This document shows, one piece after another, positions 15,920 to 28,361 of a stretch of DNA of 28,481 nucleotides. The DNA lies in the IMG/VR virus record IMGVR_UViG_3300017785_006837, positions 1 through 28,481 of that record. The stretch is one strand, 5' to 3'. The notes below the pieces were generated by a model. It was not told where the DNA came from and searched no databases. It saw only the letters and a program-made list of their open reading frames with translations. How positions within the stretch are numbered: the stretch's first letter is position 1; each line of letters opens with the position of its first letter. The stretch comes from a virus (taxonomy: Duplodnaviria > Caudoviricetes). The translations under genes and the position numbers were made by a program.

Positions 15920-15949
15920 CAAACGGTTGGTAAACCTTAAGCTTCCACT
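15916..15949 (+). repeat. GGTTGGTAAACC hairpin motif, copy 1
   Basis: ATAACAAACGGTTGGTAAACCTTAAGCTTCCACT; near-identical to 17249-17285. Confidence 0.75.
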
Positions 15950-17610: not shown

Positions 17611-17973
17611 ATGAGAAAAATCATTGGAAACGCGTTTAGCCTGCAAATGCTTATGGATAGCATTGCAGATGTACAAGTGTCTCCTATCAATAAAGAGGAG
17701 ATAGCATTCAATGAATGCGAATCTGCAATTGGTCATCAAGATCTTGCAGATCACTTAAATGTACCTATGAATAGGGTAAACACAAAGTTGTCTAATAATG
17801 ACATACTTTACGTTGCTCAGTTTATGGGTGGTAGATTGGCTGAAGGTACTACAATGCTTCAGGCTGAACAAATGGGTTTGTTGCAGTTTTTTCAAATAAC
17901 TGTAAGTTACCCAGCTATAGAATATATGGCACAAATGGTTTTGGATAATCCAGAAGATCATGGATTAATCTAA
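17611..17973 (+). CDS. acrIII-1: DUF1874 / STIV B116-like protein; putative AcrIII-1 cA4 ring nuclease (anti-CRISPR)
   Basis: GNAFSLQM, SAIGHQDLA (catalytic GH), NRVNTKL...DILYVAQ and GGRLAEG motifs; 120 aa. Confidence 0.82.
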   Translation: MRKIIGNAFSLQMLMDSIADVQVSPINKEEIAFNECESAIGHQDLADHLNVPMNRVNTKLSNNDILYVAQFMGGRLAEGTTMLQAEQMGLLQFFQITVSYPAIEYMAQMVLDNPEDHGLI

Positions 17974-18055
17974 AAAATCTCGCAGGTTGTAGAGCATCCA
18001 CTATTTAGTGGCTCTGCTCTCACCTATTTTCTATTCACATTCTAATTTAAAAACA

Positions 18056-18856
18056 ATGAAAAATCCTTTTAATTTACAAACAATGAAGAATATTGAAATT
18101 AATGTATCCGAACTGTTTTTATTGAATAACTTCTTTAATAATAAAGTACCTCAAAAAGTAATTGATGAGTATTTTACTAAAAAGAATTATCGTTCTAATG
18201 CAAAAGACTATAAAGAAGGTAGTGCAAAATACTTAGCTGAAATAGCTAAAGATGAAGAAATTGCTTTATTACCTACTCATAACATTGTAGAGAATTTTCA
18301 CGGACTTACTATTAAATTAGATTATAGTAACAAAGTAGAATTTAGCATATTAACTTATACATATACACGATCAGGGTATGATTATGATATGGAAGAGTCT
18401 TATGAAGTAGAGGTAACTGCAAAGTTTCTTTGTAAAAATGTGCATTGGGCTACAGATATAGTTACATCTATAGATGAATTACTGGTTCAAGATGATGTTA
18501 AAACTTTATTGTTTATGCATCAAAAAGAAGAGTTAAAACTCAATATTCGTAAAAACCTTGAAAGTTTAGGTAATTGTTTTAGTTTTCTACTGCAAGAGAT
18601 AGTATTAGAGGCTCATTTAGAATTTAAGCCTGTAAAATATTACTCAGAGTATGCAAGTATGGGTCAGTGTGTAGTAATAGGAGATAAAAATGAAGAAACT
18701 GTATATAGTGAAACAGAACTTGAAAAGGTTTATCAAGATTATCTAGATAAAGTAAAGTTTTACGATCATGAAGATAGAGTCATTGAATATAGAAGCTATT
18801 TAGGTAGTTATCTTAAATTTCATAGAGAACATTCTTCTAAAGCAGCGCAGTTATAA
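18056..18856 (+). CDS. Hypothetical protein
   Basis: ATG at 18056 (or 18083) preferred over GTG 18008; acidic and Tyr-rich. Confidence 0.75.
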   Translation: MKNPFNLQTMKNIEINVSELFLLNNFFNNKVPQKVIDEYFTKKNYRSNAKDYKEGSAKYLAEIAKDEEIALLPTHNIVENFHGLTIKLDYSNKVEFSILTYTYTRSGYDYDMEESYEVEVTAKFLCKNVHWATDIVTSIDELLVQDDVKTLLFMHQKEELKLNIRKNLESLGNCFSFLLQEIVLEAHLEFKPVKYYSEYASMGQCVVIGDKNEETVYSETELEKVYQDYLDKVKFYDHEDRVIEYRSYLGSYLKFHREHSSKAAQL

Positions 18857-18871
18857 CTAGAGTAGTAAATT

Positions 18872-19557
18872 AATACAATGTGTTGAGGTGGGAGGCTATA
18901 CAGCTATACTCAATGCATTGTATTTTGTTAATGCACCACAGCTCACGTAGATATAAAGACTTTTTATAATCTCTACCAAAATCGGTAGGCAATCTGGTAG
19001 AACTCATTAAAAGAGAAAGACAGATATAATAAAATGTAAAACTACTTAATTAACTAAAGATGGAGATATCAAATTCTCTTATTGCTTGTGAAAACTTGCA
19101 GTATCTTCTAAATCTAGGATATTAGTTAATTAATTCCAAAGGGTGAGCAGTTGTAATACAAATACCTCATCCAAGGTATAATTGCATAATATTCTGAATA
19201 GGCTGGGAAGCTGAATAGGGATTTATGAATTAGTATTACAACTGAGTGCAGAAACACTTAAAACTTTGATATAACCTAAAAAGCATCTGATTTGAGTTAA
19301 ACACTACAGCTATTGGATTAGCAATCAGTTAGGAAATTTGCCGAAAATGCTTATCAAAGTTTTATATCTAATGTATGGTGAGGGTAGTACAAGATGTACA
19401 AGCCTACCGTGAGGTTTTAACAGAGAACGAAAAACTCTCTTAAATGTGGTAAAAGTCCACACCCTTGCCTACATTATTCTCAATCTAATTGTTTTGTAAT
19501 GAAATAAAATCTTTAACTAATTTCAATTTAGAAAAGATGAATAAGGATTACAAAACA
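18872..19557 (+). ncRNA. Putative large structured ncRNA or array of structured RNAs
   Basis: No ORF of 60 aa or more; five consecutive domains each closed by a long or multi-helix stem, several with G-U pairs that work on the + strand. Confidence 0.65.
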
Positions 19558-19571
19558 TTATATAATACTAT

Positions 19572-19645
19572 CTTTCTGTAGCTCAGTTGGATAGAGCAAC
19601 GCACTTCTAATGCGTAGGTCAGGGGTTCGAATCCCTTCAGGAAGA
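19572..19645 (+). tRNA. trnR: tRNA-Arg (anticodon UCU), CCA not encoded
   Basis: Acceptor CTTTCTG/CAGGAAG, D arm GCTC/GAGC, anticodon arm ACGCA-CTTCTAA-TGCGT, T arm AGGGG-TTCGAAT-CCCTT. Confidence 0.95.
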
Positions 19646-19677
19646 CATTTTTTTATTCACACTTAATAACTAAAACA

Positions 19678-19818: not shown

Positions 19819-19996
19819 AATAGAAAAAATTATCTTGTGTATTACACTAGGATTGTGTAGTACACAAGATTTTTATTTGTTAGTTAAACAAGATAGTGAA
19901 TACTGTTTTGTAAAAACAAATGAAACTGAAGCAAATTACCTAAAACTACCTATTGATACACAATATGTAGCAATCAAACAATTCAAAACTAAATAA
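19811..19996 (+). CDS. Small hypothetical protein
   Basis: 61-aa ORF. Confidence 0.6.
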   Translation: MFKIEKIILCITLGLCSTQDFYLLVKQDSEYCFVKTNETEANYLKLPIDTQYVAIKQFKTK

Positions 19997-27527: not shown

Positions 27528-28361
27528 ATGATTAAAACACAAAAAACTAAAACTCTTGTTACAAAAGATAATGATAATAGTGCTAATTGTATAGCACCTA
27601 ATGTTATTTATGGTTGCTTTGGTGGTTGTGTCAACACATATTGTTATATGTCTAGATACAATGGCACTAGAGTATTTGTAAATACTAATATTGATGATGT
27701 ATTTAATTCTGTTGTAGAATGGGAGAAGTCATATACTAAAGTACCAGATCAACAAGATCCTGTTTATACAATGGTGGATATTGCTTGTAATAGTGATTTA
27801 GTACTAATGCAAAAGCATATGCCTGAACCATTAATAGACTATCTTAAAAGATATGATGATCATCCTAGATTAAATAGTACTATGGCTACTAAGTATTCAG
27901 GTTTATTAACTCTTGATGTTAATCATTTTAACAAGAAGCCTAGAGTAAGAGTTAGTTTGATGCCACAAAGATTCTCAGATATACTAGAGCCTAAGATGCA
28001 AAAGATAACTGATAGAGTAGAAGATATTAGTAGATTAAAACATCTAGGTTGGGAAGTACATATTAACTTTAGCCCATTAATCTTTTATCCAGGATGGCAA
28101 GAAGCTTACAGAGATTTATTTGCTTTAGTAAGAGTTGTAGCAGGTGAGAATAAGTGTGAAGTTATTGCTCTTACTAATCATAAGAATCAAATGGCTAAAA
28201 CTACTGATGAAGCTAGAGAGATTATGAAGTATAGTTCTGAAGTTAAGAATGCATCAGGAGTAATGAGATACCCATTAGTACACAAAACAGGATTACTAGA
28301 AGATTTTAAGAAAATCTATTCTGAATTCTTTGATTTACAAACAATTAGATACATATTTTAA
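27528..28361 (+). CDS. Spore photoproduct lyase-like radical SAM protein
   Basis: GCFGGCVNTYCY cluster motif, DIACNSD (SplB ASCTSD equivalent), ATKY, RVSLMP, NFSPLI and MRY motifs. Confidence 0.8.
   Translation: MIKTQKTKTLVTKDNDNSANCIAPNVIYGCFGGCVNTYCYMSRYNGTRVFVNTNIDDVFNSVVEWEKSYTKVPDQQDPVYTMVDIACNSDLVLMQKHMPEPLIDYLKRYDDHPRLNSTMATKYSGLLTLDVNHFNKKPRVRVSLMPQRFSDILEPKMQKITDRVEDISRLKHLGWEVHINFSPLIFYPGWQEAYRDLFALVRVVAGENKCEVIALTNHKNQMAKTTDEAREIMKYSSEVKNASGVMRYPLVHKTGLLEDFKKIYSEFFDLQTIRYIF

Follow-up and report, generated by a model that had tools for sequence, protein, structure and literature searches.

The stretch upstream of the tRNA-Arg gene in the analysed window, a 28,481-nt virus record, was a patchwork of separately inherited RNA modules, D1 to D5 (Table 1), most of them variants and relics of an already known ribozyme class, together with one uncatalogued tRNA-shaped phage RNA, D4. 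The anatomy of this island was resolved with high confidence. With modest confidence, D2, D3 and D5 are read as twister-derived and likely disabled, and D4 as a selected, independent tRNA-shaped RNA that likely acts in trans as a non-decoding decoy.

Table 1. Positions of the RNA units and of their elements in the window.
Feature	Position	Strand	Description
D1	18872-18924	+	Plain long hairpin immediately upstream of the P1 strand of the twister, in a P0-like position
D1 stem	18872-18887/18909-18924	+	16-bp arms, two G-U pairs
D2 5' core	18924-18938	+	P1 strand 18924-18928; P2 18932-18935; T2 strand 18936-18937
D2 U|AA cleavage-site motif	18929-18931	+	Predicted cut 18929/18930
D2 P4	18942-18946 with 19143-19147	+	5/5 pairs
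D2 L4 insertion	18947-19133	+	187 nt, two-armed; second arm 97% identical in L002
D2 loop L4	19134-19142	+	T1 strand 19136-19138; T2 strand 19141-19142
D2 P5 arm	19149-19243	+	Conserved closing stem; cargo unique to this phage
D2 3' core	19244-19257	+	P2 partner 19247-19250 (4/4 pairs); catalytic-position GA 19251-19252 kept
D3	19259-19364	+	Cargo-bearing outer arm of a second, permuted twister-like family
D3 closing stem	19259-19271/19352-19364	+	Perfect 13 bp
D4	19369-19476	+	Class-II tRNA-shaped five-way junction; no Rfam family
D4 acceptor-like stem	19377-19384/19462-19469	+	Sealed by 7 further pairs
D4 T-like loop	19450-19456	+	7 nt
D5	19490-19557	+	Detached twister P5 arm, 8x8 internal loop
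D5 closing stem	19490-19500/19547-19557	+	Perfect 11 bp
tRNA-Arg(UCU)	19572-19646	+	14 nt after D5; no encoded CCA

The phage was assigned to the crAss-like group because the 28.5-kb window encoded a match to the Crassvirus major capsid (E 4e-97), together with a portal, a terminase and a family A polymerase. The island belonged to an arm of small plus-strand genes, flanked on one side by a 266-aa ORF whose end is at 18856 and on the other by tRNA-Arg(UCU); AGA made up 184 of the 214 Arg codons in 15 window ORFs. The initial annotation had linked the island to a nearby Acr. The gene concerned (17611-17973, +) gave a weak match to STIV_B116-like PF08960 (E 5e-4; 20.5 bits vs a cut-off of 26), which we take to be the ring nuclease AcrIII-1, and its sole connection to the island was a proximity of 900 nt. 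The window's own contig (L288) was excluded from every count.

All stems that the initial annotation had described were recovered in place, and the inner D5 stem, the nesting of D2 and the five-way junction of D4 were seen in folds. The tRNA predicted 14 nt after D5 was found and identified as tRNA-Arg(UCU). The lack of long ORFs was confirmed, the longest ATG ORF in 18857-19571 being 22 aa on the plus strand and 45 aa on the minus strand; with no plus-strand ATG ORF above 22 aa, a reading of the stretch as small ORFs was rejected. The whole stretch (18872-19560, 689 nt) folded better than its shuffles (z -8.0; 0/20 as good), and three control stretches of the window of the same length gave z of -2.1, -2.5 and -4.0 (each also with 0/20 as good). 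The plus-strand fold of 18860-19660 had z -6.4, and the minus strand of 18860-19570 was weaker (z -4.6). Folded singly on the plus strand, D1 gave z -6.1, D2 z -5.6, D4 z -4.3 and D5 z -4.3; D3 alone folded weakly (z -2.0, 9/200 shuffles as good; minus strand -2.7). The weaker minus-strand folding and the G-U pairs in alignments argued for RNA, as the initial annotation had held, and countered a DNA cruciform.

Rfam searches of the window (E up to 1) and of 18850-19570 (E up to 10) returned tRNA-Arg and chance matches only; when the region, D4, a D4 homologue and a minimal twister copy were compared by BLASTN with 50,697 phage records, tRNA or chance matches alone appeared. GOLLD, ROOL and the ribozyme families were among the models searched, and tRNA-Arg alone was named. 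The initial annotation could not assign the stretch to a known family; the units indeed had no Rfam family, and the twister-type derivation of D2, D3 and D5 and the tRNA geometry of D4 had both been overlooked.

Relatives of the island were sought in 6 loci fetched with the polymerase and 53 loci retrieved by a 15-mer of D4. D1 occurred with parts of D2 in L002 and L004, a minimal D2 of 116 nt in L005, and D4 in L007, L010/L044, L014, L041 and L054; the order of units changed between loci, and the full set was found in no relative. The two closest relatives (59% and 86% complete) were without D4, which is therefore dispensable at least in these two. Because relatives held the units apart and in other orders, the stretch was a patchwork and not a GOLLD- or ROOL-like RNA. 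The proposal of one large ornate ncRNA was accordingly abandoned, and its stated alternative, a processed set of small RNAs, survived as far as separate small modules beside a tRNA that recur apart in relatives. GOLLD gave no match in the window, though its model scored >300 bits at L294 and L299 as a positive control; ROOL likewise gave no Rfam match in the window, with no positive control for ROOL seen. What was retained of the suggested GOLLD-type link was the position of D4 homologues about 520-530 nt upstream of GOLLD matches in two other lineages (L294/L295/L304 and L299/L305/L229/L245).

D2 is assigned to an expanded family of type-P1 twisters. The layout of this family followed the Rfam twister-P1 consensus order and the twister features that PMC5408937 lists. 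The family shared P1, U|AA, P2, P4, L4, both pseudoknots, GA and an optional P5 with the type-P1 twister (RF03160; PMC5408937, PMC11662667). Unlike RF03160, it had an extra L4 base where large insertions enter, a T2 of C-G instead of G-C, and a sequence-constant P5 stem with variable cargo. Rfam twister models did not match in the window nor in the minimal relatives L005 and L041, and the Rfam model did match other twisters in L334 and L154 (49 bits).

The window copy differed from both its family and RF03160 in having no T1 partner: 19253-19255 formed 0/3 pairs, P1 kept 3/5 pairs, and the T2 pseudoknot (2 bp; 18936-18937 with 19141-19142) was retained. No substitute strand for T1 or P1 was found inside the island. 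The 3' junction of D2 was genuine, being carried by the DNA run X3 and the RNA runs X5 to X8. Because T1 was unpaired, D2 was classed as twister-derived and not as a working member. In the available text of PMC11662667, natural twisters with three defects in the T1 pseudoknot had a mean of 0.28 cleaved vs 0.76, and a damaged T1 lowered cleavage without always abolishing it. Given these figures and the 0/3 T1 pairs, self-cleavage of D2 is likely impaired in the window.

The D2 family was retrieved with a 16-mer from the 3' end of D2, which gave 121 loci from 31 of the 64 parts of the viral collection; the constancy of the P5 and P2 3' strands follows from this pattern, which fixes them by construction. 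All loci together contained 124 distinct family copies: 70 intact twister-type, 18 without the cleavage motif, 7 with the 5' core and a broken 3' end, 12 unclear and 17 outside the parsing rules. Among the 73 twister-type copies counted by a first-pass classification, T1 formed 3/3 pairs in 66, GA was present in 72, and P5 spanned 47-172 nt. Among the 70 intact copies, T1 was CCC/GGG in 60, CCA/TGG in 7 and CAC/GTG in 3, and 12 had an L4 insertion. In an alignment of 32 of the 41 short natural copies, 96.4% of cells paired, and both sides had changed in 4/4 pairs of P1, 5/5 of P4 and 2/3 of T1; this covariation score was reached by 0/500 shuffles. The count of further pair types was not above shuffles (113/500), and compensatory change was not found in P2, T2 or P5 in the 32 copies, T2 being 100% paired.

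Defective twister copies adjoined D3 or D4 more often (6/19 vs 1/47; p = 0.002), an association that vanished without the D4-fetched loci (1/14 vs 0/46; p = 0.23), as expected of ascertainment. Intact copies lay within 80 nt of an ORF in 23/47 cases and defective copies in 4/19 (p = 0.053). In L071 (two copies), L136, L171, L286 (870-960) and L292, the cleavage loop was zipped into a continuous helix extension of 5-7 bp, which suggests that such copies are selected as non-cutting scaffolds. In L041 (2217-2750, -), a GIY-YIG gene (PF01541, E 1e-6) lay inside a twister-family copy directly upstream of D4, flanked on both sides by a repeated P4/L4 stretch. Similar islands contained hatchet ribozymes that passed the gathering score, along with matches to twister-P1 of the canonical type (L054 3091-3222, L286 1481-1615, L334 1362-1425, L154 726-789).

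Near-identical copies of D1 were found only in the close relatives L002 and L004, and the D1 pattern gave no others. For D3, a flank pattern gave 50 loci, 36 of them with a matching left arm by the rule used, some of these false. The arm closed a permuted twister-like core in the 25 copies inspected. In 20 copies plus the window row, 94% of cells paired and both partners of T1 had changed, one of its pairs being U-A in 12 rows and C-G in 7; the window row was misaligned and contributed a few spurious cells. T1 covariation, P1, P2 and the cleavage motif were present in the relatives, and P4 was not visible. The window D3 had lost the L4 hairpin, the T1 partner and the cleavage-site motif of its family; set against the core looked for in a permuted twister (T1, P1, P2, cleavage motif and P4), it kept the outer arm alone. 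A hammerhead assignment of D3 was dropped on inspection because its core elements stand in an order that does not match. The junction between D2 and D3 looks like a fusion through the GA common to both families, of the kind seen in L138, and may have arisen in that way. The permuted twister-like copies, at L345 (90-212, +) and in about 20 of the loci L317-L366, lay in most cases immediately ahead of a gene start; the 5' strand of this permuted family could pair instead with the catalytic G region.

D5 aligned with the P5 arm of L292 (822-885, -) with a global score of 76, the next of 114 P5 arms scoring 38 and the best of 1000 shuffles 45. A D5 pattern gave 4 matches in viral contigs, all unrelated. 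D3 and D5 are assigned as fragments of twister-type families, and D2, D3 and D5 together derive from two such families and are likely disabled in the window.

Twenty-six D4 loci were examined and gave 17 distinct cores. All 17 had a 4-bp D stem, a 5-nt D loop, a 5-bp T stem and an identical 7-nt T-like loop; the anticodon-like loop had 6 nt in 15 and was shorter in 2, the acceptor-like stem varied freely, and U8 was kept in 9. The tRNA elbow (G18G19, psi55-C56) was absent from 17/17, which had a D loop with one G and an A-rich T-like loop. No core (0/17) encoded CCA, nor did the tRNA-Arg of the window; CCA can be added after processing. In 14 aligned rows with 30 pairs, a small set of related rows of which the search patterns fixed parts, 94.3% of cells paired and 16/30 pairs were compensatory, in four of the five helices, the anticodon-like stem being nearly invariant. 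This covariation was reached by 0/500 shuffles, and slid controls were 37-47% paired. A crossing covariation also linked positions 9 and 21 (A-U in 8 and U-A in 4 of 14 rows; 1/500 shuffles). Each half of D4 was recovered by a pattern that left the other half unconstrained.

By the usual tRNA features, D4 had a cloverleaf, 5-bp anticodon and T stems, a 7-nt T loop and a 2-nt acceptor-D link, and had no 7-nt anticodon loop. It fell below Rfam and default ARAGORN thresholds, and relaxed ARAGORN called its copies tRNAs with inconsistent anticodons. With class II tRNAs (Ser/Leu/Sec; RF00005; PMC7609411), D4 shared the acceptor-like stem, the 2-nt link, a 4-bp D stem with A14, a 5-bp anticodon-like stem, a long variable arm, and a 5-bp T stem containing G53-C61, its 7-nt loop having U54 and A58. 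Unlike these tRNAs, it lacked G18G19, T-psi-C and CCA, its anticodon-like loop had 6 nt or fewer, and its acceptor-like stem was often sealed by further pairs. D4 is predicted to be unable to read codons. Allo-tRNAs and irregular tRNA-like RNAs, as covered in the available text of PMC7609411, resemble D4 in having a long variable arm and a non-canonical cloverleaf, some being untranslating and in polycistrons; they differ in their acceptor/T domains, which are 8/4 or 9/3, and in an anticodon loop of 7 nt, compared with the 5-bp T stem and 6-nt loop of D4. An assignment of D4 to allo-tRNAs was rejected, as its 5-bp T stem does not give their 12-bp acceptor domain (8/4 or 9/3). The YrlA Y RNA was rejected likewise: RF02553 matched D4 neither in the window nor at the homologue loci.

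D4 was searched with patterns over viral, metagenome and genome collections and with a model, R1, over 275 of 313 sources. The model gave 38 matches at 81-122 bits, many of them from the same contig, and the next match had 25 bits. Of two exact patterns run against 185,579 prokaryote genomes, one gave 6 matches, none of them scored by R1, and the other gave 0; BLASTN against 50,697 cultured phage records gave nothing better than E 4. D4 followed a twister-family copy in L041, L010/L044, L286 and L292, preceded one in L007, lay inside a P5 arm in L054, and stood alone between ORFs in L187 and L302. It also occurred in the tRNA clusters of L291 and L300, among tRNAs in L044, and near a tmRNA in L187. 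The Crassvirus capsid was matched (E<0.001) in the D4 records L041, L044, L054, L014 and L010, with only L041, L054 and L014 above the cut-off; the D4 carriers L007, L187 and L229, all fragments, gave no such match. In L300, a promoter-like sequence, judged by what we take to be the Bacteroidota consensus, stood just before D4.

Further small RNA genes were noted at these loci. Upstream of GOLLD, L299 (320-395) and L294 had about 75 nt in common, lying between D4 and a promoter-like sequence; this shared stretch is possibly another small RNA. Related phages had tmRNA genes that default ARAGORN misses (L002 7146-7527, L005 8449-8852, L004 5120-5501, L187 576-965). In L044 (2031-2105), a tRNA-like gene with a degenerate anticodon arm (ARAGORN anticodon UUA) directly followed D4.

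Near-identical DNA was found in freshwater metagenome runs; X1 and X2, from which the window may itself derive, were left out. Five of the 24 runs listed were metatranscriptomes, which contained 0.39-0.88 of the sampled words; these were 2017 freshwater runs, maybe of one campaign. Metatranscriptome contigs covered D2 to D4 with <=1 difference, including single RNA contigs of X7 (18668-19449), X8 (18891-19437) and X9 (18811-19380). D5 was covered only by one low-depth X6 contig with 6 differences, though a gap in contig coverage carries no weight as evidence, and read depth over the tRNA, which comes from other organisms' tRNAs, was ignored. RNA contigs of X5 covered 29/30 bins of a 20-kb stretch unevenly, and the DNA run X3 was near flat; this difference fits transcription, in contigs that give no strand, level or ends and may include DNA. 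One X5 contig ended at 19469, where the acceptor-like stem of D4 has its final base, with no loose end listed, and X3 continued there. As the contigs of the other RNA runs stopped at 19380-19449, at no single place, this end is at most a weak hint of processing.

Small RNAs of obscure role, RNAC and RNAD, come from the tRNA region of phage T4 (PMC3014915), and D4 likewise occurred in tRNA regions; compared by sequence alone, D4 had no match to them (best E 4 in 50,697 phage records). GOLLD (RF02032) and ROOL are phage ncRNAs near tRNA genes, like the island (10.1101/2024.12.08.627333); unlike these RNAs of one conserved fold, the window units were modular and matched neither. Theta ribozymes are small, lie next to phage tRNA genes and have a proposed role in the processing of these, and the twister-derived units likewise adjoined a tRNA; theta ribozymes are HDV-like and cut tRNA 3' ends, and the units of the window lay upstream and are likely impaired (PMC10879173, available part). 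D4 belonged to no Rfam 15 family, and its description was not found in the literature searched, which did not extend to supplementary candidate lists. A set of 8,495 candidate RNAs from IMG/VR, some of them tRNA-like, has been reported (PMC10690425), and D4 or these twisters may already stand in the supplementary lists of PMC10690425, PMC11662667 or PMC5737381.

In the favoured explanation, the island would be read within a long plus-strand early transcript. The conserved twister stems would act as joints for recombination, by which cargo and neighbours are shuffled, and the twister-family stems of the window would likely be non-cutting scaffolds. Host or phage nucleases would release D4 and tRNA-Arg. 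D4 would be neither charged nor decoding, and its invariant core and loops would bind and blunt a tRNA-recognising host protein; an anti-phage tRNA nuclease or some other factor that binds tRNA would be the most plausible target. We infer the decoy role because the acceptor stem varies freely, the core and loops are invariant, and D4 occurs independently of context. Argued from shape and analogy, it is the best reading of D4; among the roles of D4, a decoy acting in trans was considered plausible, if somewhat short of probable. The lack of G18G19 and of the T-psi-C elbow, and U8 in 9/17 only, count against it, this elbow being a feature that many tRNA-binding proteins read. A further-reaching reading, doubtful though possible, is that D4 founds an undescribed, phage-only class of tRNA mimics, a cassette moved between crAss-like and GOLLD phages that would neutralise tRNA-targeting defence, with twisters recycled as cargo-shuffling scaffolds.

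D4 could instead be a cut-here signal in cis, at which tRNA-processing enzymes would split the early transcript in place of the disabled twister. Its exact tRNA spacing agrees with such a role, as do its positions before tRNAs (window, L044) and GOLLD, the mostly adjoining twister copies without cleavage motif, T1 or catalytic G in crAss-like phages, and the X5 RNA contig end at 19469, past which the X3 DNA continues. Bacterial RNase P, however, reads the canonical tRNA elbow, which other invariant loops replace in D4; in L300 D4 comes with a promoter-like sequence of its own, the ends of other RNA contigs are scattered (19380-19449), and the link with defective twisters is confounded by how the loci were fetched, so that this signal was judged unlikely. 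That D4 self-cleaves, as a ribozyme of a class not yet described that has tRNA-like topology, was judged improbable: its loci are rich in twister, hatchet and hammerhead-like RNAs, such loci gave new ribozyme classes earlier (PMC6765202), and D4 has invariant loop and junction bases with tertiary-type covariation, but its geometry is that of a tRNA arm by arm, it also occurs in tRNA clusters of other phages, and many motifs from such loci did not cleave (PMC6765202, available part). It is distinctly unlikely that D2 still self-cleaves through residual or alternative pairing and so sets the 5' end of a D3-D4-D5-tRNA RNA. In its favour, D2 retains an intact U|AA motif, P2, T2, P4 and catalytic-position G, and 3/5 pairs remain in P1, P1 being dispensable (PMC5408937) and T1 defects leaving partial mean activity (PMC11662667); against this, T1 has 0/3 pairs vs 3/3 in 66/73 twister-type copies, a substitute strand was not found in the island, and the 187-nt L4 insertion adds a folding burden. 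RNA contigs of X5-X9 crossed 18929/18930, from uncut molecules or DNA, which gives no rate.

The two remaining explanations concern the island as a whole. Gap-free tiling, a strong overall fold, tRNA adjacency and RNA contigs bridging D2, D3 and most of D4 would suit a single large ornate RNA like GOLLD or ROOL; the absence of conserved order or long-range pairing, the reshuffling, the separate homologues of the units, the full set found in no relative and the absence of an Rfam match make it extremely improbable. That the island is mostly neutral debris of duplication, recombination and homing-endonuclease traffic among repeated ribozyme genes is very improbable, as compensatory change in D4 is strong, its loops are invariant across distant phages, the closing stems of D3 and D5 are perfect, and the region is present in RNA libraries. 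On the side of debris are the fragmentary D3 and D5, the broken D2, the closest relatives without D4, and the GIY-YIG gene interrupting a family copy in L041.

That phage tRNA regions contain small RNAs of obscure role is long established, T4 RNAC and RNAD being examples, and since there are host defences that cut tRNAs, RNAs resembling a tRNA are obvious candidates for counter-defence. As a well-aligned, covarying motif of 100 nt, D4 is readily synthesised and cheap to assay. The locus also offers natural matched pairs of intact and broken twisters, which bear on whether a ribozyme cluster near phage genes needs cleavage or the fold alone.

Other features were observed along the window. A bulged hairpin upstream of the 266-aa ORF (17983-18026, +) was without an Rfam match; it was conserved in L002, L005, L007 and L054, where its outer stem had compensatory-looking changes. 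A 22-nt motif (15925-15946, +) was identical at 10 fetched loci, several of which represent the same contig; elsewhere it was often just 5' of a twister-family copy, and in the window it lay 3 kb from one. Scans for sigma-70-like promoters (31 sites vs 39 expected) and for Bacteroidota-type promoter boxes (40 vs 48 expected; 0 on the plus strand between 16222 and 23419) were uninformative. A terminator-like 16-bp hairpin followed by a U run (19832-19870, +; z -6.7) lay inside a 61-aa ORF, 190 nt past the tRNA, and its homologue was not found in the fetched loci. A spore photoproduct lyase-like gene (27528-28361, +; PF20903, E 3e-17) was present in the window and in L002 too.
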